Positions 14,152-54,128 of a stretch of 64,000 bases of DNA are shown here, piece by piece. Origin of the DNA: an uncultured virus (IMG/VR IMGVR_UViG_3300026457_000001) (lineage: Duplodnaviria > Heunggongvirae > Uroviricota > Caudoviricetes); the IMG/VR virus record IMGVR_UViG_3300026457_000001, one strand, 5' to 3'. The notes under the pieces were generated by a model. The model did not search any database, was not told where the DNA came from, and saw only the letters and a list, made by a program, of their open reading frames with translations. Within the stretch, counting starts at the first letter, position 1. Every line of letters starts with the position of its first letter. A program made the translations under genes and the position numbers.

Positions 14152-14157
14152 TCAAAC

Positions 14158-32120: not shown

Positions 32121-32135
32121 GGTTAGTTGCTCCTA

Positions 32136-33152
32136 TCAGTCGTAATTGGAGCTGACCGAAGCACGCACGATGCCAATGTTCTTGGTTTCGTACACCTTGC
32201 TCCAGTTACCTACCGTGGCCAGTTGGGCGCGGGTGGGGTTCGTGGTGGTCACGGCCCACTTGGCACCAACGGGGTGGTAGATGTAGTGCATGTCCAGAGA
32301 CATTGCGTCCGACTTGGCGAGGATGTCGCGGTCGGTTTCAGTGCGCATTGCAGCTTGCTCACCGGTGGCAATAGCGCCGTTGGTGAAGAAATAAGCGGCA
32401 TACACACCACCGGAATTGGTGATGTCATCGGACACAATCACGCGCATACCCATATAGGTAGGAACGCGATAGTCGGCGCTGTAGGCAGAAGCCACAGAAC
32501 CACCGAAGGCGTCAGGCATGGAGGTATCGGGGCTAATACCCAGATCCGAAGCCAGAACGTAATCAATGGCCTTGCGCTCAACAAGGTCGTAGTAACAAGC
32601 GCTGTGCAGAGCCACAGCAGACAGCTTCTCGCCTTGATCACCCAGCAGTGCACGGGCCTTAGCCACGTGGCGGGGGCTCAGAGCAGTTTGGGTGCTGGTA
32701 TCGAAGCGCAGGGCATCGAAGGCAGGGGAGTCACCGCCGGTCAGGGCGCCGAACACACCTTCCAGACACTTGTACAGGTCAGCCTGCTGCTGGTTAGCAA
32801 CGTACTCACCAACTTTGGCGCCGATGGCAGCCATGGGGTCGGAACCTGCAGCCAGAGCAGCAAGGTCGCGGGCCTCAAAGGCACGGCCACGGTGCAGGAT
32901 CACGCCGATTTGCTTATCAGCAGTGATTTTGCCGGGGGTAAGGCTGGTGGAATCAGAAAGAACTTCCAGATCGCCAGAGAGGTTGGCTTTCCAGAAAGGA
33001 ACATTCACGAAATCGCCGCCCTCAGTTGCATTGAGTTCAGCCATGGGCTGAGCAACACCACTCGCCAGGAAGGCGTTCTTTTGGGTGCTTTGCTCAATGA
33101 CGTAGGGCGTAAAAATTTCGGGAATGATCACGTCCGAGCGGAGCGTGGCCAT
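32136..33152 (-). CDS. Major capsid protein
   Basis: DVIIPEIFTPYV..GGDFVNVPFW..AGSDPM..ETDRDIL; follows scaffold. Confidence 0.9.
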   Translation of the reverse strand: MATLRSDVIIPEIFTPYVIEQSTQKNAFLASGVAQPMAELNATEGGDFVNVPFWKANLSGDLEVLSDSTSLTPGKITADKQIGVILHRGRAFEARDLAALAAGSDPMAAIGAKVGEYVANQQQADLYKCLEGVFGALTGGDSPAFDALRFDTSTQTALSPRHVAKARALLGDQGEKLSAVALHSACYYDLVERKAIDYVLASDLGISPDTSMPDAFGGSVASAYSADYRVPTYMGMRVIVSDDITNSGGVYAAYFFTNGAIATGEQAAMRTETDRDILAKSDAMSLDMHYIYHPVGAKWAVTTTNPTRAQLATVGNWSKVYETKNIGIVRASVSSNYD

Positions 33153-33231
33153 TGTTAGTACCAGAAATGTTTACGGTGCGGGCGTAACCCAATGACGGAC
33201 GGCGTAGCCATTCACGTCTAACGGTTACATA

Positions 33232-33927
33232 TTAAGCATTGTTTGCTGCAGCCTTCAACCGTTCGTACAAATCACGGTCAGTGCGATACAGCCGTGACTG
33301 CTCTGTGAGGTTGAAGTATTCACGGGTGAACGGGTTTTTGGTGCCGGCCGGCACTTCGCCAGAGCTTGCACGAGCGCCGACAGGTGCGCCGGAACCTTTG
33401 ACCGTAGGCGCCTTGAACAGATAGCCGCGTTCAGCCTTCAGACGTTCTACCCACTGATCCATGGGAACCTCGTTGTAGCCGTCAACAGCCACGGGGTTAC
33501 CGTTTTCGTCAAGCTTGAGCTGATCACGCACAAGGCGTAGTGCATCGTGTGGATTGTGGGCACCCTGCTCAGCGAGGATTGCCACCACGCGGTTGTCCAG
33601 TTGATTAAAGGTCAGCTTTGATTCAAGTTCAGCGATGCGCTTTTTGTAGCCATCTTCCCGTTCTTGAAACTGCTGAGCGTATTGCTTGAGGGCCTCTTCG
33701 TACTTGCCCTTTGACTCAAGCTCTTCTTGTTCTTTCTTGCGCTTGAATTCCAACAACTCCTGAACATCAATGCCGTCAGGAAGTGCTGGTGCCTTTTCTT
33801 TCTGCTCCTTAAGCTTGCCGATCAGCTCAAAGTTTTTGCGTTCTAAACCTTCAATGCTTCGCTTGAGCTTTTCCAGTTCGTCGTTGCTTGCAGTCTGCGT
33901 AGCTTCCTGCAGTTGTTCGTCAGACAT
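33232..33927 (-). CDS. Capsid scaffolding protein
   Basis: Charged coiled coil, YLFK..GSGA..NPF..NLTEQ C-terminus; upstream of MCP. Confidence 0.8.
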   Translation of the reverse strand: MSDEQLQEATQTASNDELEKLKRSIEGLERKNFELIGKLKEQKEKAPALPDGIDVQELLEFKRKKEQEELESKGKYEEALKQYAQQFQEREDGYKKRIAELESKLTFNQLDNRVVAILAEQGAHNPHDALRLVRDQLKLDENGNPVAVDGYNEVPMDQWVERLKAERGYLFKAPTVKGSGAPVGARASSGEVPAGTKNPFTREYFNLTEQSRLYRTDRDLYERLKAAANNA

Positions 33928-33984
33928 TGTGACCCGTAGGGTTTACCACCAAACTGTATAAGTAAAAGATGCTTTTTGCACGTC

Positions 33985-34179
33985 ATGTCCCGGCGTGAGT
34001 GGGATACGCCAATTCGTGAGCCGTGGAACCCCGTGATTCACCAGATGTTGAAGGCGATTGACCTGCACACGCAGGCTTACTTGAAGACTGGCGACAGATG
34101 GCACGCTGAAAATGCCAACGCGTTGCGTAAGTACGTGGCAGAGCTAAAAGACCGAATCCACGCGGCGGAACGTCAGTAG
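33985..34179 (+). CDS. Hypothetical protein
   Basis: Isolated plus-strand ORF with plausible composition. Confidence 0.5.
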   Translation: MSRREWDTPIREPWNPVIHQMLKAIDLHTQAYLKTGDRWHAENANALRKYVAELKDRIHAAERQ

Positions 34180-34180
34180 C

Positions 34181-34452
34181 TCACCATTTTGTGTTGCTTG
34201 ACCACCACGCCGCTGACATTTTGCCCTTGGCGATATTGGCCGCATGGCGTGCCTTAAACGATGATCTTCTTGTTTGCGCTTGTGCCGATTCTCCTTTTCG
34301 TGGCGGTGAGCCTGACACGCCCTGCTGACCGAACCTGATCATTTTCACCTTGTCGCCTTCCTTCGCTAGGACAACGTGTGATTTGGTCGGATGGTTTGGC
34401 GTGCGCTTGGGCTTGTTGTAGCCCTCAAACTTTTCGCCCCGGTACTCAATCA
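34181..34452 (-). CDS. Hypothetical basic protein
   Basis: NKPKRTPNHPTKSH..IRFGQQG..SFKARH; start uncertain. Confidence 0.65.
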
Positions 34453-34637
34453 TCGTCTTCCTCCTCATCGTCGTCGTTTTCAGTGCAGGTAATAACCTCA
34501 ACACCTTCGGCTAAACGGCCCATCAATGCACCAAGACCCTCAGGTGAATTCGGCACTGGGAAAAGAAACCGACCCTCAATCAGGCCATCGGCACACTTGA
34601 GGTAAGTGCAGCTTCCTTCCCAGATCTTGCCTTTCAT
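34446..34637 (-). CDS. Hypothetical acidic-tailed protein
   Basis: Coupled to neighbours by start/stop overlaps. Confidence 0.5.
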   Translation of the reverse strand: MKGKIWEGSCTYLKCADGLIEGRFLFPVPNSPEGLGALMGRLAEGVEVITCTENDDDEEEDDD

Positions 34638-34864
34638 TTGCGCTTCGTGGCTTCCTTCAATTCTGATCGCTTTTTCAGAACTGGGTTGCCAGTCGATTCA
34701 GATTGAATGCGCAATACCGGGTCAGCTTCTGTGCCGACGCGGGTGACCTTGCCGCCGGTTGGACCTTCAATGGTGGCGCGATTGCCAGCCTTGCCGGTCA
34801 CAGTGCCGTAGGTGGTCTTGCCTTGATAGGTCCAGCTGACGCGGGAGCCGATGCCGATAGCCAT
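34634..34864 (-). CDS. DUF2945/HVA1-like small beta protein
   Basis: IGSRVSW..GTV..VTR.GT..DP..I.SE.TG..VLKK.SEL. Confidence 0.55.
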   Translation of the reverse strand: MAIGIGSRVSWTYQGKTTYGTVTGKAGNRATIEGPTGGKVTRVGTEADPVLRIQSESTGNPVLKKRSELKEATKRK

Positions 34865-35049
34865 CACTTCTTGCCTTTGGGCTTACGGGCCTTGCCGGCT
34901 TCAGACAGAGCGATGGCGATGGCCTGTTTACGGCTTTTGACGGTTGGGCCTTTGCCGGGGCCTGGCTTGCCACTTTTCAGCGTTCCGGCCTTGTACTCGC
35001 TCATCACCTTGCCGATTTTCTTCTCGGCTTTGGTCGGTTTCTTGGCCAT
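34864..35049 (-). CDS. Small basic protein (DUF6496-like)
   Basis: KVMSEYKAGTLKSG..VKSRKQAIAIALSEA. Confidence 0.65.
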   Translation of the reverse strand: MAKKPTKAEKKIGKVMSEYKAGTLKSGKPGPGKGPTVKSRKQAIAIALSEAGKARKPKGKK

Positions 35050-35189
35050 CACGCCATTCTGTGACTGCATCCAATTTAGTAGTTAGATCGGAAGTGAACC
35101 AGCCGTGGTTGGTGTAGATGGCTTCAACCCAAGCCTCACCAATAAGAGCTAAAACGCAGTCACTCCTTAAATAACCGTCAACAAAACAT

Positions 35190-37313
35190 TTAAGCGTCGG
35201 GTTTGCCATATCTTTGCTGCAACTGTTTCAGGCTAACTTCGCTGCCGTCTTCACGCACAAAACGAGCAAGTGCCTGCTGCGGACCTAGTTCTTTGCTGAG
35301 TTTTTCAAAGTACGGCAGACGCGACTTGCCGAGCACTTCGGCTTGATATTCCTTGGGCTGACGCTGTAGCCATTGCCCGTAGTTTGTATCTGCGGAAACC
35401 TCACCGCCTTGTGCGGCGCGCTTTGCTTCGCCAATCACATCCTCGGGTGACCGCAAGCCAAGGGCGCGGTAATCAATGACCGGAATTGTGGTGCTACGGC
35501 AGTTGTGGGTTAAAATGGAGTCAGCCCAGTACAGGCCGCTTTCGGTCTCGAAGTTGTAGACATGCCCGCTAAATGGCTCCCGTCCAATCCCGACGACCTT
35601 CACCGCATCATTGCCCTTTACGACGACGGAATCGGGATCCGTGGAATCGCTCAGCAGTTCAACGTCTCGCCACGTCCCATAGAGCGCATCATCCTGAGTT
35701 CTGGCCGCACCCTCAGAAATAGAAGCGAACAGCAATTCGCTCGCATGGCCAGAGCCACCCCCGCTGAAAGAAAGGCTTTGGCTTCCGCCGCTCACGTCGC
35801 TAAACGCGGAACCACCAACAGCGAGGAAACTTTGCGCAAAATGGCCAACGCCAGAGCCCGTAGAGTCGGACCCTTGGAGGCTGATGTTGCGCAGCATCTT
35901 GAAAAGTTCGGGATTCACTGCGAGCAACAATTCCCGATTGGCAAGTACAACTGCGACATCCTCTGCGGCAACATCGCCGTGGAAATCTGGGGCGGAAATT
36001 GGCACTTCTACGGAGAACACAGAAGGCGATTTTCCGAACGCACTAAATACATCCTCGGCAGTGGTTACAGCGTCGTTTTTTTGGTCGCCTGCAAAAGCTT
36101 CCAATGGAACAGCACTGCTGCGGAAAACCTGATCACCAATTTGCACGCTTTGCGCAGTCTTCCAGCCGACATTCGTCAATACAGGGTGGTTTGGGGTGAC
36201 TCTGAGCACGTCACCATCGGTGGTGCTGATGACACACAAAAAGCCTTGATATGGCCGACGGTAAACCGCCGCGATTTGACTACTGGCCGATACACGCGCT
36301 TCACCCGGTAAGCAGTTGAAGTGAACGGGAGGCATCGGGCCTTCACCGTATTTGAATTCCTTGCCGTCAAGGCTGCGGCAAATCGCTGAGGTGCGGCTAT
36401 CCAACGTGGCGAGGTAGCGGTATTTCTTGGTGACTTCCTCATTGGCGCGGTAGACCTGTTGGCTGGCTTCATTCGCCACTTGTTGCACGCTTGTACGCAC
36501 AACGGTCAATACCTGATGATCAGCCATGCGGGTAAGCTCACCACCGGCTAATGCCTGTTGCCGTGCAGTCTTGGCGAGCTGGCCAAATTCAAGGCTCCCA
36601 ACCATGCGCCGAGCGATCTGCGGTGTCGGTTCACCTGACAAGATTCCGGTGCGCACGATGGTGTTGAACCGCTGCGCTTGCGACTCGGCCAATCCACGAA
36701 ACGCTTTTTGCACCACCTCGCCATTGGGCAATGTGATAGCTGAACCCTGCGCTGCAGTCAGATTGAACTGCCCCGTACCTGGGAGCGTGAAGTTCAAATC
36801 CGTGGGGTCAACGCTGGCGACACTGGCCGCAAAGTTCGGCGCAACCTCAACGGTATTAACTGCCTGCTGAGCTACGACGCTGGGCTCAATGCCACGGCCA
36901 CCAACCTCGCCACCGGCTACAGCAAGGCGAAGCTGTTCGGTGACAAATTCTGTTTGCAGCTCAGCCAAACCTTGTAATTCACGAGAGGCATAAGCCGTGC
37001 TGCGATCTGCCCAGCCATCTAGTGATTGCTTGAGCTGAGCAAGGATCACACGTAGACGCTGCGCCTGCACCGATGACGGGCTGACAATGCCTGCGCCTGC
37101 TGTGGCTTCGCCAAAATCAATGCGCTTTAGATCGTCAACGGCGCTCAGGATGATGGCGTTGTAATCCCGCACAATCTGACGGGCGACAGCATTGCTGAAG
37201 CGGTTCAGATCAATGGCGTTTCGGTAGATGTTGGCAACAGGATTGCTGCGGTCAATCTTCCGCTTGAATTGCTCAACGTTGAGCAGGCGAGGTGTAACGC
37301 CCGATTGCGTCAT
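35190..37313 (-). CDS. MuF/SPP1 gp7-like minor head protein, intein-containing
   Basis: Follows portal; YLATLDSRTSAICRSLDG..PPVHFN|intein|CRST. Confidence 0.9.
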   Translation of the reverse strand: MTQSGVTPRLLNVEQFKRKIDRSNPVANIYRNAIDLNRFSNAVARQIVRDYNAIILSAVDDLKRIDFGEATAGAGIVSPSSVQAQRLRVILAQLKQSLDGWADRSTAYASRELQGLAELQTEFVTEQLRLAVAGGEVGGRGIEPSVVAQQAVNTVEVAPNFAASVASVDPTDLNFTLPGTGQFNLTAAQGSAITLPNGEVVQKAFRGLAESQAQRFNTIVRTGILSGEPTPQIARRMVGSLEFGQLAKTARQQALAGGELTRMADHQVLTVVRTSVQQVANEASQQVYRANEEVTKKYRYLATLDSRTSAICRSLDGKEFKYGEGPMPPVHFNCLPGEARVSASSQIAAVYRRPYQGFLCVISTTDGDVLRVTPNHPVLTNVGWKTAQSVQIGDQVFRSSAVPLEAFAGDQKNDAVTTAEDVFSAFGKSPSVFSVEVPISAPDFHGDVAAEDVAVVLANRELLLAVNPELFKMLRNISLQGSDSTGSGVGHFAQSFLAVGGSAFSDVSGGSQSLSFSGGGSGHASELLFASISEGAARTQDDALYGTWRDVELLSDSTDPDSVVVKGNDAVKVVGIGREPFSGHVYNFETESGLYWADSILTHNCRSTTIPVIDYRALGLRSPEDVIGEAKRAAQGGEVSADTNYGQWLQRQPKEYQAEVLGKSRLPYFEKLSKELGPQQALARFVREDGSEVSLKQLQQRYGKPDA
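35502..36314 (-). mobile_element. Intein (271 aa) in MuF
   Basis: Block A CLPGEARV, block B LRVTPNHPVLT, block F/G VYNFETESGLYWADSILTHN followed by +1 Cys. Confidence 0.92.
35562..36311 (+). CDS. Antisense intein-nested endonuclease: HTH + NUMOD3-like + Vsr/DUF559-like domain
   Basis: IRGIAQQFNVS HTH; RGTTNSEETLRKMANAR; LE..VAQHL..EQQFPIGKYNCDIL..IAVEIWGGNWH. Confidence 0.8.
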   Translation: MPAKWLPSNPDDLHRIIALYDDGIGIRGIAQQFNVSPRPIERIILSSGRTLRNRSEQQFARMARATPAERKALASAAHVAKRGTTNSEETLRKMANARARRVGPLEADVAQHLEKFGIHCEQQFPIGKYNCDILCGNIAVEIWGGNWHFYGEHRRRFSERTKYILGSGYSVVFLVACKSFQWNSTAAENLITNLHALRSLPADIRQYRVVWGDSEHVTIGGADDTQKALIWPTVNRRDLTTGRYTRFTR

Positions 37314-38809
37314 TGCATTTGATCGTTAGAACTTTGATCTTCATAGCTCTGATCGTTGGGCATTTCTTCGCCCATCACGTCTTCAGAGCCAAGGTTTTCA
37401 GGGCCGCCAAGCTCAATCAATCCACCAGATTGCGTGGCTTCTAGTTCTTCCTCAACATCGAAGTCATCGCCCAGCACTTCACCTTGAGCGAGCTGATCAA
37501 GCAAGGTTTTCTGACTGATCACGCCGGCGGTGTAAGTCTGCAGCAACGCGGTGATTTCGGCAGGTTCAAGACGTGCACCGATAAAGTCACGGTTGACATA
37601 GCTGCTGCCGGATTGCGCTTGGCCCAGGTAGTCAGCGTGATAGCGCAGGCAGTTATCAATTAGATCTTGCACCTGCTGTGCAATCACCATCATGGTGGAA
37701 TCGCCTTGGCTCCGATCAATGCGCTTTGCCTCGGCAGTTTCGGCACTTAGCTTTTGGCCAAGGATGGCGGACAGGCCAAGTTCATTGATCTGCGCTGCCA
37801 GTTGAGCAAGACGATCAAACTGCGACTTGAAGCTGTTGCCGCTGGGTTCGATGTATTCGGCACGGCCTTCAGACGGGAAGGCGATGGCCTCACCAGGACC
37901 GGCGCTTACTTCCTCAGCACTGGACGGGAAGCCGAAGAATGCCAGCATCGGCACTGCCGAGATGTGCAACATGTTGTCCAGATCGCTCTGGATTTGGTAG
38001 GTCTTGAGGTTCAGTTCAGCAATGTCTTCCAGCGGCGGGCGTGATTCCAACAGGCCAACGCGGTTTGAGTAGGCAGTGGCGAACGGAATGTAATCAAGGC
38101 TGGTGGTGCCTTCAGCCACTTTTTCAAAGCTTCCGCGTGTGTCATCTTGACGGAACAATGCATAAGAGCCTGGCTTCAGTACACGCACCTGTTCAACAAC
38201 CTTTTCGCCGTATTCACCGTCAGCGATGGTTACGCGCTCCATCAGACGCAGTTGAGTGAGTTGTTGTGCGCCGTTTACCACCTCCGAACGCCAACCAAGA
38301 ATGTCACGCGGCGTATAGGTAACCCAATAAGGACGCAATGCAGAGACGTCGGTGATGTTTTGCAGCTCGCTGTCGTCTTGGCTAGGGAAATCAACAAGAA
38401 CACCAGCGTGGCCGTACCGAATAATTTTTCGCGCTAATTCGTAGACGTAAATGTTCAGGTCATTGCCCTGAAGGTCTACGTCAAATAGTTGCTCACGAAT
38501 AACATCGGGCACGTCGTCAAGACGCACAGGCTTACGGGTCAACATGCCCGCCAACATGCGTTCAAGCCGCTGGTAGTACGGCGGACAAACAGAACGCGCT
38601 AGGCGGTTGTCGTAGCTGTCGTCTTGCTCGCGTGGTTCCTGCGGCAGGTAACGCCGGTGTTTACGGCGCATTCCATAGGTGCCCTGCAAGAGATCTTCGA
38701 TCAGGATCCAATGGGCCTCTTGTGCCTGCCAAGCTGCGTTGGGATCTTGAACCTGCGTGGCCGTGCGCGTCAGATTCCGGTCGTAGTGCCTGAAACCGGT
38801 GTACGTCAT
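37310..38809 (-). CDS. Portal protein (DUF4055-like)
   Basis: YLPQEPRE..Y..RL.RS..YGHAGVLVD..PPL.DIA.LN..YQ.QSD. Confidence 0.9.
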   Translation of the reverse strand: MTYTGFRHYDRNLTRTATQVQDPNAAWQAQEAHWILIEDLLQGTYGMRRKHRRYLPQEPREQDDSYDNRLARSVCPPYYQRLERMLAGMLTRKPVRLDDVPDVIREQLFDVDLQGNDLNIYVYELARKIIRYGHAGVLVDFPSQDDSELQNITDVSALRPYWVTYTPRDILGWRSEVVNGAQQLTQLRLMERVTIADGEYGEKVVEQVRVLKPGSYALFRQDDTRGSFEKVAEGTTSLDYIPFATAYSNRVGLLESRPPLEDIAELNLKTYQIQSDLDNMLHISAVPMLAFFGFPSSAEEVSAGPGEAIAFPSEGRAEYIEPSGNSFKSQFDRLAQLAAQINELGLSAILGQKLSAETAEAKRIDRSQGDSTMMVIAQQVQDLIDNCLRYHADYLGQAQSGSSYVNRDFIGARLEPAEITALLQTYTAGVISQKTLLDQLAQGEVLGDDFDVEEELEATQSGGLIELGGPENLGSEDVMGEEMPNDQSYEDQSSNDQMQ

Positions 38810-38815
38810 CTTTTG

Positions 38816-38942
38816 CGCCTAGCCATGCACAAAGTCTATGGGTATAGGTTAATCGTGAATGATGGCTGGGCCTCCGATACCGCCACACACGGCGTTCAGC
38901 CTTACGGTCAGAACCGACCCAGCAGATTGAATTTAACCGTGG
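38816..38942 (+). repeat. Exact 127-bp direct repeat, copy 2 (A/B junction)
   Basis: Identical to 1-127. Confidence 0.95.
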
Positions 38943-39124
38943 TCTTCGGCGGTTTGAATTTCTTCGTCTAGAGCGTCACCAGCTTCGTCAAACCCTTCGT
39001 CGTAGAGCCACTGTTGAACAGCGGTGAGCATGGCAGCGGCGGCGAGGTTGAATTCGTAATCGCCGTCGGAATCAACGGCGGAGTCAAAGGCGCCTTGAAG
39101 ATCGTGCCAAAGGTGCTTTGCCAT
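38933..39124 (-). CDS. Hypothetical acidic protein (unit B copy)
   Basis: Homolog of 118-309. Confidence 0.75.
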   Translation of the reverse strand: MAKHLWHDLQGAFDSAVDSDGDYEFNLAAAAMLTAVQQWLYDEGFDEAGDALDEEIQTAEDHG

Positions 39125-39155
39125 GGTGATATTTCGGCGGCCTTACGTTAGCGGC

Positions 39156-44259: not shown

Positions 44260-44696
44260 AAAAAGTATTTGATATGGCAGAGGTGATCGCTCTGCTGCGC
44301 CGTGGCATTGCCGCAGGTTATTGGACGCTGGAAGACCTAGACGTGCCATCACAAGGCTGGGTCATCACAATGGAGGATGCCAAGCGCATTCCCGGTTTCA
44401 CACCACCAATTCACCGCAATCCCCTCAGAGATGAGCCCACAACAGCAGAACGCGTTGAAGTCGTCAGCCCCAGAGACTTCGCGGTGGTTGAAGCCACTCC
44501 CGATCCTGTTCAACGAGGAAGCGCACCGCTACTACCACGAGCCGACGGGGCAGTGGCTGAATCATTCAGTGACGCAGGTGTGCAAGGGGACGAAGGATGC
44601 GTGGGCGATGAAGCGGATCATGGAGACAAAGCACATCTGGGAGCCACGTGGGAAGGCAGTACACAAGGCGTTGGAGGATTTTCTGACGACTGGTGA
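44256..44696 (+). CDS. Hypothetical protein overlapping the exonuclease gene
   Basis: Homolog of 5743-6183. Confidence 0.55.
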   Translation: MKKVFDMAEVIALLRRGIAAGYWTLEDLDVPSQGWVITMEDAKRIPGFTPPIHRNPLRDEPTTAERVEVVSPRDFAVVEATPDPVQRGSAPLLPRADGAVAESFSDAGVQGDEGCVGDEADHGDKAHLGATWEGSTQGVGGFSDDW

Positions 44697-45111
44697 CGCC
44701 GGCGAATGGCCTGCTGAATACGCGGAATGGATTGAGCCGTTACTGGGCCATTCCGTTTGGCAGACCTATGAGGCCATCGCGTGTGAATACCGATTGTGCG
44801 ATGTAGAGCGCAGCATTGCCGGCAGCTTTGATTGCCTGTTGCGCCGTAAGGATGATCATCAACAGCTTGTGTTGGTTGACCTGAAGACGCAGGGCAAGCC
44901 TGATGCCAGCCCGTATGACGTGAGCACGCAGCTCGGCGGCTACCTGGGGATGATGAGCCTGCACTGGCCCAAGCTGTACATCCAAAAGGCTGGTGTGCTG
45001 TGGTCTCGGCCTGGCAGTACGACGCTGCAGAAGGTGGATGTGGATGAGGCAGTGATCGAGTGGCAGGGCGCTAGGGATGCGTTTCTGATGTTGAACGCGC
45101 CGGAGTTCTAA
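44377..45111 (+). CDS. PD-(D/E)xK exonuclease (unit B)
   Basis: Near-identical to 5864-6598. Confidence 0.85.
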   Translation: MPSAFPVSHHQFTAIPSEMSPQQQNALKSSAPETSRWLKPLPILFNEEAHRYYHEPTGQWLNHSVTQVCKGTKDAWAMKRIMETKHIWEPRGKAVHKALEDFLTTGDAGEWPAEYAEWIEPLLGHSVWQTYEAIACEYRLCDVERSIAGSFDCLLRRKDDHQQLVLVDLKTQGKPDASPYDVSTQLGGYLGMMSLHWPKLYIQKAGVLWSRPGSTTLQKVDVDEAVIEWQGARDAFLMLNAPEF

Positions 45112-45199
45112 TGACTGATCCTGTGTGGCCAGTAATGGCGCTGATTGGCGTTGGTTTGCTTGGCGTGACGGCGCTGCTGGCCTGGGTTGCCGTACAGGA

Positions 45200-45228
45200 T
45201 TGACGGGCCTTGCGCTTAGGGGTATACT
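45200..45228 (+). promoter_or_regulatory. Sigma70 promoter with GGGGTATACTCC box
   Basis: TTGACG-17-TATACT. Confidence 0.8.
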
Positions 45229-46114
45229 CCATGTGGGCAGCGATGCCCTCACTACACACAGACCCAAATGACAAACCTTAACCGCGCTACAAAGGCTCAG
45301 TTGCTTGAGCTGATTACCGAGCAGGCCGGCACCACCACAACACTTGAGAAACAGGTGAACGAATCCAGGGAACAGGTCACCATCGCGCTATGGATTGCGG
45401 CCATCAGCTTCTGCCTCGGCCTTCTGTTCTGATCACCAGCCCCTTCGGGGGCTTTTCTTTTCTTGCCATGAAAAACCCCGAATCACTGCTCGGCGTCATT
45501 GCCAGCACCAAGATCGAAATCGCCCGCCATCAGGAAATCCTTGATCGCCTTATGGAGGATCTAGCCCTGATGTACACCACAGGTGACCTAGACGATCTAA
45601 AGGATGACGACGGCAACCTTAGTGCTCACGGAATCAAAGTATCCCGCTGCACACGCACGAGTTGGCAGTACAGCAATGCCGTCAAAGAGCTGCAGCAGCT
45701 AGAGCAATTTGAAGGCGTCGCCACAAAGCGCGAAACAGAATATTGGAGAGTGACGCTGCCAAAGGCAGAGTTCTGATGGCTGGCTCTCCCATAGACGATC
45801 AGATCGAAGCCATCTTGGCCAAATATGACCTATGGGATCCAGAGCAATACACCAATGCCGTTGCTGAGCTTGCGAGCTACCTACTGACCGTTGACCCCAA
45901 GGAGGAGGCACGCAGTCTGTACTACAAGTCCGCACGCGAAAAGATTCACCTAGAAAACTGCCTGATTCGATCCAATGGCTAATCCGTACAACCTGTACAA
46001 CCTGACGTGGCAGACGCGGTTTTTGTTCTGGCTGCTCTCCAAGCGTCCTGACGTTGCCGGCATTACGTTGAGCACGCCAGTTGATCACTTAGCGCGTTGC
46101 CTGAGCCATACGAA

Positions 46115-46525
46115 ATGAAGTTTGCCGTTCAGGGCATTGAACCCGCCCCGCAAGGCAGCAAACGACACGTTGGCAACGGGCGAATGGTTGAAGCATCAGC
46201 AAAGGTCAAGCCATGGCGTTTTGCTGTCAGCCAGGCAGCCCTTGCAACCGGCGAGGCTATGACCGACGGACAGGTTTCAGTGCAGATCACTTTCCTGTTC
46301 AACCGGCCCAAGGCGCATTACAACAGCAAGGGCGAGCTGAAATTAAAGGCTCCGTTCTACAAAAGCACCAAGCCCGATTTGGACAAACTGTGCAGGTCAA
46401 CGCTTGATGGCATCACAGGCGTCTTGATCAAAGACGATTCACAAGTTGTCAATTTGATCTGCAACAAGGTCTACACCAACGAGGGCGAATTGCCAGGCGC
46501 ACTGATTACCATCAACCCACTGTGA
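46115..46525 (+). CDS. rusA: RusA-like resolvase (unit B)
   Basis: KPDLDKL..DDSQV. Confidence 0.9.
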   Translation: MKFAVQGIEPAPQGSKRHVGNGRMVEASAKVKPWRFAVSQAALATGEAMTDGQVSVQITFLFNRPKAHYNSKGELKLKAPFYKSTKPDLDKLCRSTLDGITGVLIKDDSQVVNLICNKVYTNEGELPGALITINPL

Positions 46526-47268
46526 AAGGATCAAAGAATCGACGGGAATGCGTCGTTTGCCAGTCAGTCTTTGTTATCCCAATCTTGAAGGGAAATCACA
46601 AAAGTCAACGACTGACCTGCAGTGCGCTTTGCCATCGTCGCTATGTCAGCAGAAATGCAAGGCGTTGGGTCAAAGGTGAACTGGACATTATTGAACAGCT
46701 CAGCATCTCAATGCCGCCGAAGCGGTTGTACATGACGTATTGCCGAATGGCGGCTGAGCGTGGATTCCCCAAGCGATCAGAGGCCGCGTTTCGTTGCAAA
46801 TTGCGGTTGCTTGGCATTCCTTTGATGCCGGAGCTGGACTGGTACAAGCTGAATCAGTTAGCGGAGATGTTTGATACGACTCGGCACTTGGTTTACAAGC
46901 TGGTGAAAAAGGGCTTGAGGGCCGAACGCGAATCAGACCACCCAAATCAGCCTTGGTTTGTAAGCCGCGCAGAGCTGAGGCGTTTCGCACGCAAGCACCC
47001 GCAACTGTTCAGGCACTTCAATCAAGATGGCCTGTTTGTTGCGCTTGAAGATCGCAAGCTTGTTGAGCTGATCATGGCGCAGCCCAAGGTGCATCTACCG
47101 AATCGCTATAACCCAACAACGGTCAGGTGTGTGGAGACTGGCAATATCTACAAGAGTTACAGAGCGGCGGCCAGAGAGGTGTTTGTTGACCCGTCTGCCA
47201 TCTATGCATCAGCCAAGCACGGGCACAGAGCAGGCGGCTACCACTGGGTTGTCGTATCTCAAATTTAA
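46522..47268 (+). CDS. NUMOD1/HTH DNA-binding protein (unit B)
   Basis: Near-identical to 8009-8755. Confidence 0.6.
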   Translation: MKGSKNRRECVVCQSVFVIPILKGNHKSQRLTCSALCHRRYVSRNARRWVKGELDIIEQLSISMPPKRLYMTYCRMAAERGFPKRSEAAFRCKLRLLGIPLMPELDWYKLNQLAEMFDTTRHLVYKLVKKGLRAERESDHPNQPWFVSRAELRRFARKHPQLFRHFNQDGLFVALEDRKLVELIMAQPKVHLPNRYNPTTVRCVETGNIYKSYRAAAREVFVDPSAIYASAKHGHRAGGYHWVVVSQI

Positions 47269-47331
47269 GGGTATACTCCAGATGGGTCCGAAGCCCCGTC
47301 CTCTCCGATCACCACACATCACCGCACGCTT

Positions 47332-48030
47332 ATGACTGATTACCCCAACCTCGGGGATGTGATCACTCAGGCTGATGTATCGACCAAAGGCACAGGCTCC
47401 TACGCCGCTGATTACATCAACTGGTGTCGCGTCTCCCACCTACTCCACGATCATGCGCCTGGCTGGCAGTTCGCTTTACAGGCTCATCACGAAACAGGCC
47501 ACGCATGGAAAGCTCCCGACGGAACCGCTTATGTGGTCGGGTTCTTTGAGCACGCCAGCGGCCACGAAACGCCGTATTTCCCTCAGGCGGTTATGGACAA
47601 CCGCAACAACGCGATTGCGTTTGAAAAGGTCACAGCCCGTGATCTCACCGATGCGCACCGCCGTTGTCTTTGTACCGCTGCTGCTGCTCAGTTTGGTCTT
47701 GGCTGGCAGCTCTGGGCGCGGGAGCCAGTAGAAAATCCGCACCGTGATACCAAACCTGCACTACAGCAGGAAGCACCCAAGGCCGAACCGTCCCAAGTGC
47801 AGGACACTCAGCCCAAGGCCAAAGCCAAGCCTGAATCCAAGATCACTTTCCTTACGGACGATCAGGTCGAGGAAGTCAAGGCCATGGTCAAGGCATACGA
47901 CAAACGCGACGATCTCATTGCTGCCTTCAAAAAGCAGTTCAAGATCATGGCGCCGCGCATTGCCGACCGCATCCAATTCCCCGAACACAAGGAATTCATT
48001 GAGAAGTACATCGCCGAAAATCCCGTATGA
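47332..48030 (+). CDS. Sak3/DUF1071-like annealing protein (unit B)
   Basis: Near-identical to 8819-9529 with a 4-aa linker deletion. Confidence 0.7.
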   Translation: MTDYPNLGDVITQADVSTKGTGSYAADYINWCRVSHLLHDHAPGWQFALQAHHETGHAWKAPDGTAYVVGFFEHASGHETPYFPQAVMDNRNNAIAFEKVTARDLTDAHRRCLCTAAAAQFGLGWQLWAREPVENPHRDTKPALQQEAPKAEPSQVQDTQPKAKAKPESKITFLTDDQVEEVKAMVKAYDKRDDLIAAFKKQFKIMAPRIADRIQFPEHKEFIEKYIAENPV

Positions 48031-48209
48031 CAGGGCGACAGCCCAGATCCGCAGAGGAAATCAACCGCAAGAAAAACCGCTTTTGTGTAGCGGCCAAACT
48101 TCCGGCTGATCTCCACCGTCAACTAAGGGCTTACTGCGCCAAATCAGGGCAGAACATCAATCAAGCCCTTCGCCACATCATCTCAACCTTCCTAGCTACT
48201 CATGGCTGA
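48027..48209 (+). CDS. RHH regulator (unit B)
   Basis: Homolog of 9526-9708. Confidence 0.65.
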   Translation: MTGRQPRSAEEINRKKNRFCVAAKLPADLHRQLRAYCAKSGQNINQALRHIISTFLATHG

Positions 48210-48497
48210 TATTGCCTTCACGGCGAAATTCCGAATCCAGGAAAATCGCAACCGCAAAAGTGACAAGTCACCCGAGGAAAACATCGTGGTGGACTTCACC
48301 TCAGAGCAGGCCATGGCCGCTGCCAGCTACCTGATGACAATGGCCGAACAGGCGGAAGCCAAAGGCCAGAAGATCCGCGTTTACACCGGCAAAGACGAAT
48401 ACACCGAGCAAATCGGTTTTTCGTTGTGGGGCGGAAAGTGGGGTAATAAGGGCTCCTTTACACCGCTCAAGCCCGAATCCCCTGAATCCTCTTTCTG

Positions 48498-48845
48498 ATG
48501 TCAACCATGATCATCCTTACCGATTCCCAACTCGTTGAGCTGAACAATCGCTTGGGTCAAATCCAGCGCCTGATTGAAACTGCTCAGGTCATCAAGGCTG
48601 GTGGCGTCGCTCAACCTAAGGCCGTGACTGAAGCTGTAGAGGCACCGTCTGTTGTCGGCAAGCGCCGTAAGGCCAAGCGCAAGCGTGGTGCACTGAACGA
48701 ACAGAAGGTGGCCGAGATCAAAGCTCGCCTTGCCGCCGGCAACGAATCAGCACAAAAGATTGCTGACGACTACGGGGTGCACTTCACCACCGTGAATCTG
48801 ATCAAGTACGGCAAGACTTGGAAGAACGTTCAGGCATCTGCTTGA
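48498..48845 (+). CDS. HTH DNA-binding protein (unit B)
   Basis: Homolog of 9997-10341. Confidence 0.75.
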   Translation: MSTMIILTDSQLVELNNRLGQIQRLIETAQVIKAGGVAQPKAVTEAVEAPSVVGKRRKAKRKRGALNEQKVAEIKARLAAGNESAQKIADDYGVHFTTVNLIKYGKTWKNVQASA

Positions 48846-49821
48846 TCTTTCATCAGTTGCAGCTCTAGGGCTGCGATTCGGTTGGTTGCCTGCTGCAGCA
48901 GCGTTTGCTGCATGTTCCATGCTCTGTACAACTGAGCGGCAATGGGGCCGGCGTTGGGGGTGTTCTCCAAGCGTCTGGCCTCTTTTTCTACGTTGAATTG
49001 GGAGGTTGGATCGGCCTTAAGAGTCATCCAATCCCATGCTTCGTGATCCATGGCAGTGGCGGTAGCACATTCACGCTAGAGGCCGTGTCTACGTCACAAA
49101 TTGCAACAGCACTGTTTTCGGGGTTTACTCCGCCCAAATAGCCGCTACCATTCACGCAACCGGGGCGACCTGGCCAACCGACAACCCACACCACACCATG
49201 AAAAACACCGTTTACAACCTGCTGCTGTTTGTCCTGCCTGCAGCAATCTTCGGCGTCATCATTCACGACGGTCTAACCCTTAAAACCGCTGAACACAGCG
49301 GCACTCAGCGCGCCATCTACGTCACCACAAAATGAGCCTTGTTGTTCTTTCCGCCCAGTGCGCCGGTATGGTCGCGCCTGTTATTCCGCTCAGTCAAAAG
49401 ACCTACAAAATGTCGCCCAATTCACGCGGCGTCAGAGCTGAACGTGACCTGTGGCGTTTCCATCCCGGTATGCCCTGTTACGTCCGTGGCTGGCCACAAG
49501 TAGAGGCAACGGTGATAGCCAAGGTAGAAGGCTGCTCATGGCCTACCTACATCGTTCAAAGCTTCTCAACTGGCGCCAGTTACCAAGTTTCTCAGCTTTA
49601 TCTCTCCAAGCGTCCAATTGAACAACGATGAAAACTCAACTCCAACCACAACCACGCCGTTTCTACTTCACCATTCCGTCAATCAACATCTACGACTGGG
49701 TGGTGGCCTGCGGCTTCACCGAAGCAAAACAACTCGCCCACGCAACATGGGGCACGCACTACCGCGAACCGCAATGGCTAACGCCTGATCGCCATAGTGA
49801 GGTAAAGCTTCCTCGCTTTTA

Positions 49822-50217
49822 ATGGCACGCCCCCACAACGCCAAACTTTCGCCTGCTGACATTATCTACATCCTGCAGTCCGACAAAGACAATCACACTT
49901 TGGGGCAGGAATTTTGTGTAACTCGGCAGGCGATTTCTTTAATACGCAATGGCAAGGCATACAAAGATGTTGCACCAAACATTCCGCGTATTCCAGTTCG
50001 CATTAAAAACAGCATCCCAAAATCACGCCTTGCCAATGCCAAACACTGCCACAACTGCATCGAATATCGACGTGGCGAATGCTCCTACGGTTTCCCAGAG
50101 GCCATAGATGAACCCGAATTCGCCGCAGCCTGTTCCCTCTACAGCCGAAATCCAGACCATTCTTCAACAGTGCCTTGCCGAATACTGGGCGCCACGGTTC
50201 AACAATCACACGATTGA
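49822..50217 (+). CDS. HTH plus Cys-rich protein (unit B)
   Basis: Homolog of 11318-11713. Confidence 0.65.
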   Translation: MARPHNAKLSPADIIYILQSDKDNHTLGQEFCVTRQAISLIRNGKAYKDVAPNIPRIPVRIKNSIPKSRLANAKHCHNCIEYRRGECSYGFPEAIDEPEFAAACSLYSRNPDHSSTVPCRILGATVQQSHD

Positions 50218-50967
50218 TCACTACGCCCGTATGCACGCTGCACTACAGCCATTCATCCGCTATCAACAGGCAAACTGCCCGATAGCCAATGGCACCGATC
50301 AAGGCGGAAGCCAACCGATATGACAGCCCAAGGCATTACTGCTACGGAGCTGATTGGGTCGGTTATGGTCTCAACTCAGCCTTTGAACCGTGGTGTTGGG
50401 ATGGCACAGCCGTATGGCGTGGTCCACTCTGCGACACAAGATCAGAAGCACTCACCATTGCCAAAACCCATGCTGAATCGTGTTGAACTTGACCAGCGCC
50501 GCGCTGATTTCATGGAAACCCTCTACCAGCAGTACAGCACTGATCACACCTACACGGGTGTGTGGGAGCGTTTTGCCTATGACGTTGCCGGAACTATTCG
50601 TGACTTGGATTACAGCGTGCTTCGCGCTGATCTCATCCGTGCTCTTGGTGTTACTGACAGTGAGCTGGCTAACCGGTACGCTGATACTGCTATCACCGTT
50701 CTGACAAGTCACCTACTGCCACGCAACTAAACATGGCCGTCAAAGTTCCATTCCTCAATCGTTTTGAAAATTGGTGCTTTAACGTCCTTGCTCGCAGTAA
50801 GCGTGTCGGCACTATTCAAGTCAGGCTGCGTCATACGCCGGTGACCTACATCGTGCGCGATCTCAACGATCCGTGCGTTGAAGGCCAACAACCCGACGAG
50901 ATGGCACCAGATCATTTCAACCTAGAGCGGCTGTTCCATATGCCGTCCTACGGCGAAGACGAATGAA

Positions 50968-51348
50968 ATGATCAACCTTTTCAACGGCCGAGTTGTTTTA
51001 GAACGGCGAACGCTCGTTGAAAATTGGCGTGCCAAGGTCAAGTTGCCTAAACAAGGCGGTGCCTTTGTCGTTATCGACCTTCAGACCGCAAATCTGAAGA
51101 CCGCCTTTGTTCGGGCTCACAATATTTACCAAAGCATTAAAAAAGGCCAACAATACGAACAGCTCGATCCACCTGCGTTGACGCACCTGAGCTGCTGGGA
51201 TTGCTGTCATTGGTCTGTATTACGCGTCAACAACGGCGGTAATGGCTGCGAATTTGAATTCCCCGAAGCCAAGCAAACCGCCTACGGTAAGTTCGCTGCC
51301 CAATGCCACCTGTATGACGATGGAACCGATAGTGCTGAGCAAGACTGA
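50968..51348 (+). CDS. Arm-binding-like plus Cys-rich protein (unit B)
   Basis: Homolog of 12464-12844. Confidence 0.5.
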   Translation: MINLFNGRVVLERRTLVENWRAKVKLPKQGGAFVVIDLQTANLKTAFVRAHNIYQSIKKGQQYEQLDPPALTHLSCWDCCHWSVLRVNNGGNGCEFEFPEAKQTAYGKFAAQCHLYDDGTDSAEQD

Positions 51349-51517
51349 ATTTGACGACGGCAGTTATATCGAAACCCTTGAACCCGCCGATGGCGGTGAG
51401 ATGTACTACCGCAGTTGCTACAAAGGGATGTGTAGGTATTCCAGTGATCTCTGGCAAGCGCAAATTTACATACACCAGATGACAACAACTTGAACCATTG
51501 CGGCATCAGCCGCTTTT

Positions 51518-51829
51518 TTATTCTCGATTGATCCAATCCATAATCCTTGCCTCGCCAATCTCTGACCAGAACGGCAAACTTCTATACCAAACCCTCCAGT
51601 CCTTGTGTCCCTTACTCATATTGCAACCGAAGCAACAAGCCACAAGATTATTCATTTCGCTCGTGCCACCTTTGGCTTTTGGCAGCACATGGTCAAGCGT
51701 TGGCGACCTGCCTAATGGTTCAAAGCAATATGCGCAGTGATAATTAAAGTGCAATAACACCTGATCACGGAACCTTCGCTTTGCATCACGTTTGCGGACA
51801 AGCTCGGTGCCATCAATGTGCTCAACCAC
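51518..51829 (-). CDS. HNH endonuclease (unit B)
   Basis: Near-identical to 13015-13326. Confidence 0.9.
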   Translation of the reverse strand: MVEHIDGTELVRKRDAKRRFRDQVLLHFNYHCAYCFEPLGRSPTLDHVLPKAKGGTSEMNNLVACCFGCNMSKGHKDWRVWYRSLPFWSEIGEARIMDWINRE

Positions 51830-52101
51830 GCGGTAGCCACTGATTTCTTAAACGGTAGCCATGACCACCAATATGAACTACTACATCAAGCTGCCTGACA
51901 GAACACGGGTCGGGCCATTCCGCACAGTTGGCGCCGTTCAGTTATGGGCTCACCAGCGTGGTTACCAGGAATTTTCTATACATTTTCTGCAGAGCCCTGA
52001 TCTACCCAACGAACTACGACACGAGCAAGGGCCAGATCACTGAGCAATAAAAAACCGCCCAGCCTTGGCTCTGAGCGGTCGGATCCATCTCCCAACTAAA
52101 T

Positions 52102-52653
52102 CTAGGGAGTTACAACAACGGAACCCTTAAATGTTTCCCAAGATGGCATGACGGTTGTATGACCGTTGTAATGACCAATCTCGGCATAGGACCGCTCAGG
52201 GTTGTCAGAAAGTGGCATGAAGAACATTTGACCAATTAGCAGACCAGGCCACAAGGCAACCTTGTGTTTCAGGCGTACATTTTTAAGCTCAAGCGTCAGC
52301 CTGCTGCCGTGCCACCCAGGATCACAAAATCCGGCCAGCATGTGCTGAATGCCAGAACGAGCGCGGCTTGATTTCAGTACAAACTGCGCAGCAATCGCCG
52401 GATCATCGGGAAGGTTGAAGATCTCTTCCGTTTCGGCAAGGATGAATTCACCTGGCTGCAGCCAATACGGATCTTCCTTGGTATGGCCGGCAATGCTGTG
52501 CCTGATCAGCTCTGGTGTTTCCGCTACCTCAAGCATGATGTTGTCACCCAAGGCCACGTCATAGCTAGCCGGGTTAAGGCGCTCAGGATCAAACGGATGA
52601 ATCAGCGCATGGCTTTGGCACAGTGCGCGAATCTCCGAATCAGGCAGCAGCAT
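52102..52653 (-). CDS. dcd: dCTP deaminase (unit B)
   Basis: Near-identical to 13600-14151. Confidence 0.92.
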   Translation of the reverse strand: MLLPDSEIRALCQSHALIHPFDPERLNPASYDVALGDNIMLEVAETPELIRHSIAGHTKEDPYWLQPGEFILAETEEIFNLPDDPAIAAQFVLKSSRARSGIQHMLAGFCDPGWHGSRLTLELKNVRLKHKVALWPGLLIGQMFFMPLSDNPERSYAEIGHYNGHTTVMPSWETFKGSVVVTP

Positions 52654-53709
52654 TCAGGCTCCGTAGTTCCAGCGGACTCTAGGACGTCCTGGCCGAATTC
52701 CAAGATGGATAAATGAGGGCGCACCATATCCAAGCGAATATGGCCAGTGAGCATCAGCCCAATTCTGCAGCTCATAGGTGTTCACGCCTTCGATAAACCA
52801 ATCAATCGCGCCCGTATCTGCTGCGTCGTACAAATGCTCCGACCTGGCAGATCCGCCAACTTCAGCGTTGATCTTCGCTGGCCTGTAGCCGCTTGTAATT
52901 ACTACTGGCTTGTTGCCAAACGCCGTACGTGCACGCTCAGCAAACTGGCAAAGCATCAGCGCCGTATCGCATTGATATTGCTTATTAAATCTTCTGGCCT
53001 CTTGGTTTAATGTCAACTCGCCGTATTTAATGTTCGGCGTTACCTGAAAATTGAACGGCTTATCAGGCGTAAAACGCACATCATTCGTCAGCGGTTTAGT
53101 GCCTTTGAGGAACAGATCAAGCTCATCACGCCGACGGCGTACCAAGCCTTCCAGCACCTTGCCGCCACCTTTGTTCCACCTCGGCAGCTCTTCCATCGCC
53201 ACCTTTTGCGCATTTTCGCCATTGTTTAGCCGCTTACGCAGCGTGCTATCCATCAATGCACCAGTGCCAACATTGAACGTAAAGCTGATCAATGCGCAAC
53301 GCTGATTGTCTGTTAGCGGCACACGGATCTGTGAATCAACAGCACTGGCAAAACGCTCAACATCAGACAGAAGCAACGCCTCAGCATCAGCTTCCGTGAT
53401 CTTCATTCCTTCCTTCACAGTTGGCCCGGTATGGCCATAACCAACAGTCGGTACGCCAGCCGGACAGATATAACCTTCAAGCCGCAGACCTTCCCATTTT
53501 TTGATCAGATCAAGCGCAGGCTGCAGATTATTTTCCTCTTGCTTGCCAGATTGGCTCCAGGTCTTGAACCACGCCTGATCACGACCAAGGATGTGCGGAT
53601 TGGCCTTGTTAATCGCCTCCTCAAGCTCACTGACAGCAGCCATTTGATGTGGCAGGCCAGCCTTGTAAAACCGAAACAGATCAATCAGGCGAATCTGATT
53701 TTGCGTCAT
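52654..53709 (-). CDS. Endolysin GH24 + peptidase M15 (unit B)
   Basis: Near-identical to 14158-15210, C-terminus more diverged. Confidence 0.9.
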   Translation of the reverse strand: MTQNQIRLIDLFRFYKAGLPHQMAAVSELEEAINKANPHILGRDQAWFKTWSQSGKQEENNLQPALDLIKKWEGLRLEGYICPAGVPTVGYGHTGPTVKEGMKITEADAEALLLSDVERFASAVDSQIRVPLTDNQRCALISFTFNVGTGALMDSTLRKRLNNGENAQKVAMEELPRWNKGGGKVLEGLVRRRRDELDLFLKGTKPLTNDVRFTPDKPFNFQVTPNIKYGELTLNQEARRFNKQYQCDTALMLCQFAERARTAFGNKPVVITSGYRPAKINAEVGGSARSEHLYDAADTGAIDWFIEGVNTYELQNWADAHWPYSLGYGAPSFIHLGIRPGRPRVRWNYGA

Positions 53710-53958
53710 TGCTCCAAGGGGCGTGAATGCTCATGGCGCCACCAAGTAAGCGGCTGTCACCAGTCTGCAGCGTATCGTCAATTTCGTGGTGCACAACAAC
53801 AGGCTTCGACTCCTCTGGCTGCGCCTGATGCCACCTTTGCTCTTCACGGTCTAAGCGCGGCTTGAGCGTCTTCTCAAATTTGTAATCCTGGGCCCAACGA
53901 CGTAGGTGATGCCGCCAGTCCTTATCGCCAAACCGCGTTAGCCATACCGTATCGGCGT

Positions 53959-54096: not shown

Positions 54097-54128
54097 GACG
54101 AATCAACGCTTTCCTTCAGTGTACGGCG

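Follow-up and report, generated by a model that had tools for sequence, protein, structure and literature searches.

Can one stretch of phage DNA encode an intein on one strand and, in the same triplets, its homing endonuclease on the other? The question is raised by a locus in a 64,000-nucleotide (nt) sequence from an uncultured virus (Caudoviricetes; IMG/VR record IMGVR_UViG_3300026457_000001), hereafter the window, in which the gene for a MuF head-morphogenesis (minor capsid) protein is interrupted by an intein, and an open reading frame (ORF) of 249 amino acids (aa) lies wholly inside that intein on the opposite strand. All positions are counted on the plus strand of the 64,000-nt stretch. 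As argued below, the sense strand very probably encodes an intein and the antisense strand an independently expressed homing endonuclease. Such a layout is rare, and a 2025 preprint had already described it in other phages (Gosselin, Arsenault and Gogarten, bioRxiv 10.1101/2025.01.02.630785); the window is a further example, from a different phage group.

An intein and an antisense ORF that share their codons

The MuF gene occupies 35190..37313 on the minus strand (707 codons including the intein) and was identified in the ORF list by matches to Phage_Mu_F (Pfam, 1.2e-11) and to phrog_241, head morphogenesis (1.7e-78). Aligned to intein-less alleles, in which the site reads HFN|CRST, it divides into an N-extein of 333 aa with the C-terminal end PPVHFN (36315..37313, minus strand), a C-extein that starts CRSTTIPV and includes the stop codon (35190..35501, minus strand) and, between them, an intein of 271 codons (35502..36314, minus strand) that starts CLPGEARV, ends SILTHN and is followed by CRS. 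The insertion is in frame at a conserved MuF site, with Cys1 directly after HFN; the junctions, placed by alignment with relatives, enclose Cys1, a block B T40-x-x-H43 and a terminal H270-N271 that precedes Cys.

The nested ORF (35562..36311, plus strand) runs from an ATG to a TAA at 36309-36311 and encodes a putative homing endonuclease with a helix-turn-helix (HTH) and a Vsr-like (EDxHD/DUF559-type) domain. It shares identical triplets with the intein, in a codon-aligned antisense register, and its TAA is the complement of intein codon 2. The coordinates, the 271-codon intein, the 249-aa ORF nested in it, the exact register and the origin of the stop codon had all been proposed from the letters alone, and all were correct.

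The antisense ORF is a gene under selection

In this register the third position of a plus-frame codon is the first position of a minus-frame codon. Antisense similarity between relatives could merely mirror conservation of the sense intein, so it was asked which frame the substitutions respect, using five pairs of related GenBank loci and four pairs that include the window or its IMG/VR relatives. Within the intein's middle, most codon changes were synonymous in the plus frame only (plus-only/minus-only 43/7, 42/5, 36/13, 46/16 and 39/8 for five pairs), and at the splicing ends they were mostly synonymous in the minus frame only (for example, 5/17 and 2/10). Pooled over four independent pairs (43/7, 36/13, 46/16 and 39/8 in the middle), the counts were 164/44 for the middle and 36/69 for the ends (Fisher p = 1.6e-14). 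A sliding map placed plus-frame selection at ~35590-36145 and minus-frame selection at 35502-35590 and ~36130-36314.

Each frame also avoids TTA, CTA and TCA, because the two genes share codons and these three would be stops opposite. The plus frame within the intein has none of them in 12 of 12 loci, compared with 0.003-0.045 per codon in the exteins and 13 in the 311 codons of a free-standing homologue described below, and the sense intein has just one to three, at its ends. Under local codon usage, the chance of such openness in the window is ~7e-4 for the minus frame across the plus ORF and ~9e-6 for the plus frame across the sense codons, and it falls as low as 4e-9 and 9e-12 in low-GC (guanine + cytosine) relatives (Vibrio phage). 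Because of the plus-frame synonymous changes and the mutual stop avoidance, the plus ORF is a protein-coding gene under purifying selection; along most of its length, selection on the opposing sense frame is mainly for openness.

Could the antisense ORF still be a by-product of an open antisense frame in a gene of middle to high GC content, with a conservation that mirrors the sense intein? Similarity in one frame is automatically mirrored in the other and, in two Gordonia phages with 68% GC, an antisense frame would stay open by chance with appreciable probability (0.04 to 0.2). This explanation is nonetheless extremely improbable: substitutions in the middle fall at plus-frame third positions, with the pooled excess of plus-synonymous changes given above, the frame is open in low-GC phages where chance would allow it at 1e-6 to 1e-12, the product contains HTH families above the Pfam cut-offs and a confidently predicted Vsr-like fold, and an annotated free-standing homologue exists.

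The sense-strand product is predicted to be a splicing intein

Among 37 intein sequences, C1, T40, N42, H43 and N271 were invariant, and a simple boundary method recovered canonical junctions at 69 of 80 IMG/VR loci, with 4 loci truncated and 7 unresolved by it. An AlphaFold2 (AF2) model built from the 37 sequences is confident at residues 1-69 and 231-271. The first of these segments is the N-terminal splicing region (36108..36314, minus strand), with a pLDDT score (predicted local distance difference test) of ~84-94 over residues 1-60 and changes that are mostly minus-frame synonymous, and the second is the C-terminal splicing region with blocks F and G (35502..35624, minus strand; pLDDT 78-95), in which the minus-frame selection of 35502-35590 lies. 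The model aligned to the hedgehog Hint domain 1at0 with a Z score of 11.6 and to the Mtu RecA intein 2in0 with a Z score of 11.3 (root-mean-square deviation [rmsd] 1.7, 107 aligned residues). Residues 145-230 (35625..35882, minus strand) form a sense-frame linker that is Ser/Gly-rich (19 Ser and 14 Gly among 86 residues), free of stops and predicted to be disordered (pLDDT ~30), and its changed codons are mostly non-synonymous in the minus frame. The sense protein is thus predicted, from the model, to be a class-1-type intein with a Hint fold and a disordered insert. Residues 82-144 (pLDDT 56-83) were considered as a real extra sub-domain of the intein, a reading that proved inseparable from an artefact of mirrored covariation. 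Pfam gave no LAGLIDADG or HNH match in either frame, in agreement with the sequence-only reading of the sense middle.

The match to Pfam Intein_splicing is weak (6e-5, 23.3 bits, under the cut-off of 35.8), and an insertion has been described that is read in frame, hides a nuclease and lacks a splicing domain (PMC11855218, in the part of the text available). Both would suit an insert that does not splice and is instead a tolerated internal domain of MuF, as proposed for the ShiLan methylase insertion. This is very unlikely given the conservation of Cys1, T40-x-x-H43 and H270-N271 with the following Cys, the minus-frame purifying selection at both ends and the Z scores of 11.3-11.6 to solved Hint domains and inteins.

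The antisense product resembles Vsr-like homing endonucleases

The plus protein begins with a resolvase-type HTH (aa 9-37; 35586..35672, plus strand), which matched HTH_7 above the Pfam gathering score (25.3 bits, cut-off 23.8), as the HTH noticed in the letters had suggested; a NUMOD3-like motif claimed alongside it had no Pfam match at E<=1. Two nuclease families matched weakly, MTES_1575 (PF18741; restriction-endonuclease fold) at 8e-4 and 19.9 bits (gathering score 38.2; best score among relatives, 33.9) and DUF559 (PF04480) at 0.024 and 14.9 bits (gathering score 20.6). Relatives carry one to three HTH modules, the number of which accounts for the length classes observed among the inteins (~271, 316-325 and 350-370 codons; L004, L007, L009, L011, L038, L061 and other loci in our numbering).

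An AF2 model built from an alignment of the window protein and 14 database homologues had a mean pLDDT of 84.3. Its residues 101-221 (35862..36224, plus strand) aligned in VIA-align to the Vsr endonuclease 1cw0_A (Z 12.4, rmsd 2.5, 112 aligned residues), and the model also aligned to the catalytic domain of I-Bth0305I, 3r3p_A (Z 11.1, 93 of 97 residues), and to the DUF559 protein 3hrl (Z 9.6). Residues 1-50 matched the DNA-binding domains of Hin and gamma-delta resolvase (Z 5.2-5.4). A profile searched against PDB sequences returned 3hrl (3.3e-6) and 3r3p (8.4e-4); despite the sub-threshold Pfam scores, relatedness to DUF559/MTES_1575 is supported by the profile match and the modelled similarity to 3hrl. 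These results uphold the earlier suggestion of a Vsr/DUF559-type core and, with the intein model, the expectation of a Hint fold with a disordered insert on one strand and a Vsr-like fold on the other. Among the 15 aligned plus proteins, E106, N130, D132, V140, E141, G144 and G145 are invariant and W147, H148 and R160 nearly so; E106, D132, E141, H148 and R160 fall within the nuclease domain. Judged by the model, the plus protein is most likely a putative homing endonuclease composed of a resolvase-type HTH, a helical linker and a Vsr-like PD-(D/E)xK domain.

The element is widespread and sporadic at one precise site

The arrangement was found in all 92 loci examined, comprising IMG/VR contigs and phages of ten host genera (Salmonella, Escherichia, Pantoea, Vibrio, Pseudomonas, Klebsiella, Edwardsiella, Aggregatibacter, Idiomarina and Gordonia). 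A megablast search of the MuF region against GenBank phages returned no match, and tblastn with the plus protein found relatives in 116 GenBank phage records at 24-37% identity, which, among the matches listed, lay under genes called head morphogenesis, minor capsid, hypothetical or otherwise-named proteins. In 11 of 13 GenBank records inspected, the match was antisense to an open MuF frame whose intein shares its site and register with that of the window; the other two were a free-standing gene and an unverified, unannotated record with a broken minus frame. In the latter (Salmonella phage GE_vB_M5, locus L013), the minus ORF has only 277 codons and the plus match is partial, for which a sequencing error or a decaying copy is possible. 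Existing annotation handles the locus in different ways: the record of Salmonella phage PK2 (L002, 1444-2253) lists the antisense ORF as a hypothetical protein, that of Escherichia phage Snoke (L001, 1435-2064) marks the intein ends and omits the antisense gene, and several GenBank records call MuF an ADP-ribosyltransferase.

In IMG/VR, at least 534 of 600 pattern-matched stretches encode a relative of the plus protein, and the minus frame was codon-aligned and open over the whole match in all 80 loci kept, within minus ORFs of 324-1268 codons, the shortest of which were ended by contig ends. A plus-protein profile matched 1105 representative clusters (50% identity) at E<=1e-30 among 1.84 billion.

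A search of IMG/VR with the N-extein recovered 66 loci, of which 62 were analysed, leaving out four with partial matches at contig ends. The intein was present in 7 of these 62 close MuF relatives (four identical to the window), 53 had an exactly empty HFN|CRST site and 2 were interrupted by contig ends. Some empty alleles have an N-extein 96-97% identical to that of the window, the insertion boundaries are clean at AAC|TGC (blastn), and the nearest of the available virus records lacks the intein. Such sporadic presence at one precise site is the pattern expected of a homing element.

Candidate expression signals lie in the antisense of blocks G and F

Signals for expression of the nested gene were sought in 60 nt across the C-terminal junction, where the plus strand is the antisense of blocks G and F, using 72 distinct sequences and, as controls, 3913 other 60-nt stretches of the same strand and loci; the junction sequences share ancestry, so the counts that follow are not independent events. 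A -10-like hexamer (at least 5 of 6 positions) occurred in 44 of 72 junctions and 240 of 3913 controls, a perfect TATAAT in 23 and 21, respectively, and a TGn-extended -10 in 19 and 12. In many lineages TGnTATAAT stands at a fixed position, produced by Ile-Ile-(Thr/Ala) encoded as ATT-ATA-(ACA/GCA), and Ile at block G position -4 uses the rare codon ATA in 18 of 23 cases, compared with 17% elsewhere. GAGG or GGAG precedes the start by 7-10 nt in many loci. The start itself is at a fixed offset, antisense of a nearly invariant block F His; of 71 distinct inteins, 60 have ATG there and 5 have GTG. Across these 71, the stop codon lies opposite intein codon 2 in 53 cases and opposite one of codons 3-20 in 11, while in 6 it is beyond the intein and in 1 it comes early.

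In the window, the corresponding plus-strand elements are a candidate -10, TAAAAT (35511..35516; antisense of the block G codons Ile-Leu), a weak candidate ribosome-binding site, GAAG (35550-35553; GAGG or GGAG in relatives), and the ATG (35562-35564; antisense of the block F His251 codon, at the offset fixed in relatives). The TAAAAT had been singled out in the sequence-only reading and falls exactly where relatives have TGnTATAAT. The -10, the ribosome site and the start codon in the antisense of blocks G and F are candidate expression signals of the nuclease gene.

A five-codon motif is constrained in both frames

At 35973..35987 the plus strand encodes I-A-V-E-I, part of the nuclease core, and the minus strand D-F-H-G-D, its exact complement, as had been stated from the letters. 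Across 69 distinct versions of the plus (I/V)-A-V-E, the codons are nearly frozen (GCC in 69 of 69, GTG in 68, RTC in 68 and GAA in 64), and free variation is seen in Gly codons at a distance of three to four positions. In the free-standing homologue the motif is written GTG GCG CTG GAA. On the sense side, F-H-G-D comprises intein residues 111-114, of which H112 and D114 are invariant in the 37 sequences. Stop avoidance was considered as the cause of the frozen third positions and cannot explain them; the sense F-H-G-D, or the nucleic acid itself, must then be selected as well. By this codon pattern, a stretch of 12-15 nt appears constrained in both frames. The purely passive sense middle implied by the sequence-only reading does not hold here, as the sense DFHGD is itself under selection.

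A free-standing relative in Acinetobacter phages

In Acinetobacter phage vB_AbaM_IME285 and two near-identical records, a 297-aa homologue of the plus protein is an annotated gene, convergent with an intein-less MuF (ending ..CKCRAKL..) that it overlaps by 7 nt (413-1348 and 1342-2127 of locus L010). It is 34% identical to the antisense ORF of Aaphi23 (residues 1-279, E 1e-27), and its codon-aligned antisense frame is full of stops. By eye, that antisense resembles worn intein blocks in two places (..IIASPQFTIL*SNG.. vs ..LLATPNHPILTSNG.. and HVHSLM*.. vs HVHNLQM..). A tblastn search with eight intact inteins against the IME285 locus found no match to the splicing blocks and one weak match (E 0.001, 2.3-kb subject), a mirror of the nuclease similarity. 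The reading of a decayed intein therefore rests on visual motif likeness, mirrored similarity being automatic from plus-protein homology. As the likenesses are to general intein motifs, the IME285 gene probably descends from a nested gene whose intein decayed after MuF regained an uninterrupted frame. The Acinetobacter locus suggests that the nuclease gene can outlive its intein.

Evidence for and against a homing function

The case for homing draws on two open frames, a selected frame that switches between the middle and the ends, predicted folds, and presence or absence at a precise site. The following observations weigh against it. The Pfam nuclease-family matches are all under their gathering scores, and a Foldseek search with the plus-protein model returned nothing at E<=0.001, with E-values of ~1e-2. 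No conserved counterpart of the final Asp of EDxHD was identified in the plus-protein alignment, in which R160 is conserved instead, and the Gordonia, Aaphi23, Edwardsiella and Klebsiella members have other residues in place of GG-x-W-H; for these two reasons some members may be inactive or mechanistically different. AF2 models of a dual-coded region are open to misleading covariation from the other frame, here at plus residues 200-249 and sense residues 82-144, and no weight was placed on either segment. The compared loci are not phylogenetically independent. The nearest empty alleles have just ~89% DNA identity, so that no very recent invasion is documented.

Points of the same kind concern expression. 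The window's TAAAAT, which has no TG extension, and its GAAG are weaker than the versions of relatives. A sigma-70 two-hexamer scan of 35100-36700 found 0 promoters, with 0.8 expected, and -10-only elements were therefore sought by the comparison across loci given above. Three riverine metatranscriptome runs contain parts of the stretch (78% of sampled words in one), in contigs that cover 33000-39000 in pieces; being contigs only, free of strand, start or level and with possible DNA carry-over, they are neutral on antisense transcription. Two runs with a small share of the stretch each have a contig of ~150-164 nt within 35826-35989, over the nuclease core, which is the sole contig of the region in one of them and possibly represents conserved sequence of relatives; it was given no weight as evidence.

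Several of these points would also fit a genuine protein under selection that has lost, or never had, a homing function, in an intein passed on mostly by vertical inheritance. It might be a DNA-binding regulator, might serve the phage as a nickase or nuclease in another way (for example, in competing with phages of the same infection) or might assist the intein. Its HTH modules lie well above the Pfam cut-offs and its nuclease matches below them, several lineages lack a conserved catalytic His/Gly-Gly segment, and, in the available part of the 2025 preprint, most Vsr-like cases appear vertically inherited. We consider such a role unlikely, because E106, D132 and E141 are invariant in 15 sequences, the predicted fold strongly matches Vsr and the proven homing endonuclease I-Bth0305I, the intein is present or absent at an exact site among near-identical exteins, and a free-standing homologue lies directly beside MuF, near an empty site. 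The conserved dual-coding element proposed in the sequence-only reading, with a splicing domain in sense and a nuclease gene in antisense, gains support from selection, fold and distribution.

Under the homing reading, the locus would be a composite selfish element in a phage MuF gene. The intein would be translated within MuF and presumably self-splice at HFN|C, so that the insertion would cost the phage little. Where a co-infecting phage had an intein-less MuF, the antisense nuclease would cut that allele at or close to AAC|TGC, and repair by recombination would copy in the intein along with the nuclease gene. Expression would proceed from signals in the antisense of block G and F codons, through which the nuclease could be made independently of the late head gene, and the sense middle would be a disordered linker that must only stay open. 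Cleavage activity and target, antisense transcription and splicing are the inferred steps of this mechanism. We lean, by a small degree, towards the fuller view of a deeply co-adapted two-strand unit, with signals and stop in the antisense of the intein, a dual-frame motif, a wide distribution in phages of Gram-negative hosts and a nuclease that can outlive its intein.

Relation to known systems

The comparisons in this section apply to the parts of the cited texts that were available. The 2025 preprint reports 63 non-canonical actinobacteriophage inteins, among them inteins with antisense LAGLIDADG or Vsr-like endonucleases, in genes for DNA polymerase, minor capsid, terminase and thymidylate synthase; these cases overturn the claim of an undescribed arrangement. 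HHpred there matches the Vsr-like type to 3R3P (EDxHD family), and the origin proposed is a free-standing endonuclease gene that invaded an intein. The preprint also cites earlier antisense LAGLIDADG cases (Synechocystis DnaX and others; Gorbalenya 1998, Gogarten et al. 2002). As in the actinobacteriophage inteins, the window has a full, non-split intein, an in-frame middle without a recognisable fold and an antisense Vsr-like ORF inside, and Gordonia phages Vivi2 and Angelicage carry homologues of its element at the same MuF site. Unlike that set, the window and most of its relatives come from phages of Gram-negative hosts and from metagenomes. The available text of the preprint makes no mention of a promoter or of Salmonella, and includes no codon-level selection test, embedded expression signals, doubly constrained motif or free-standing derivative. 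No report was found in the literature of a spread of the Vsr-like antisense type beyond actinophages, of a -10, ribosome site and start codon that are formed by the antisense of blocks G and F, of a motif constrained in both frames, or of a free-standing derivative. The antisense LAGLIDADG inteins likewise have an endonuclease gene opposite an open, functional intein, but belong to another nuclease family and other host genes.

The Vsr-like/EDxHD family was defined in split inteins (PMC2677866) and in an intron (PMC3239194). In the fractured genes of the former study (Dassa et al. 2009), as in the window, the family is linked to inteins in phage-like DNA, and the endonuclease has its own expression signals and a coding region that overlaps parts of the intein. 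There, a Vsr-like or GIY-YIG gene lies between split-intein halves, and two separate genes take the place of one host gene with its intein; an antisense arrangement was not found in the available text. The window intein, unlike those, stays contiguous because its antisense gene avoids sense stops. I-Bth0305I and the EDxHD family (Taylor et al. 2011, PMC3239194) share with the window protein the combination of N-terminal DNA-binding modules and a C-terminal Vsr-like catalytic domain. I-Bth0305I is, however, encoded on the sense strand, in a group I intron, the final Asp of EDxHD is not evident in the window protein, and the N-terminal modules of the latter are resolvase-type HTHs by Pfam rather than demonstrated NUMODs. 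The ShiLan domain (PMC11855218) is, like the window, an insertion in frame with its host gene (a methylase) with a nuclease in another frame; unlike the window, the nuclease is on the same strand in a different frame, is of the HNH type and has no splicing domain around it. A 2016 survey of mycobacteriophage inteins (PMC5050341) makes, in its available text, no mention of antisense or opposite-strand genes, minor capsid or MuF.

Other features of the window

Beside the head genes is a second pair of long, fully overlapping ORFs on opposite strands, of 343 aa (32127-33158, plus strand) and 338 aa (32136-33152, minus strand). The stretch contains more than one related genome unit: comparison of the first 38 kb with the rest (blastn) aligned 1-310 with 38816-39125 (96% identity over 310 nt) and 5818-15925 with 44331-54423 (93% identity over 10.1 kb, offset ~38.5 kb), and ORF sizes recur with small differences. 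The doubling could have arisen from two related phages lying in tandem, from concatemer formation or from a join made during assembly; the nearest of the available virus records is 39,998 bp long with terminal repeats.

Implications

The locus is a clean natural case of long antiparallel dual coding, with ~250 shared codons, in which the selected strand can be read at each position from the substitutions. It is relevant to the gain and loss of homing endonucleases by inteins and to the models known as 'splicing first' and fractured genes. The nuclease gene is unannotated in most of the annotated phage records examined, because gene callers report MuF only, and the genes overlooked include a putative site-specific nuclease in the phages of Salmonella, Escherichia and Klebsiella that were examined. 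The Vsr-like family has been little characterised, and its specificity might be easier to define with so many members directed at a single conserved site.

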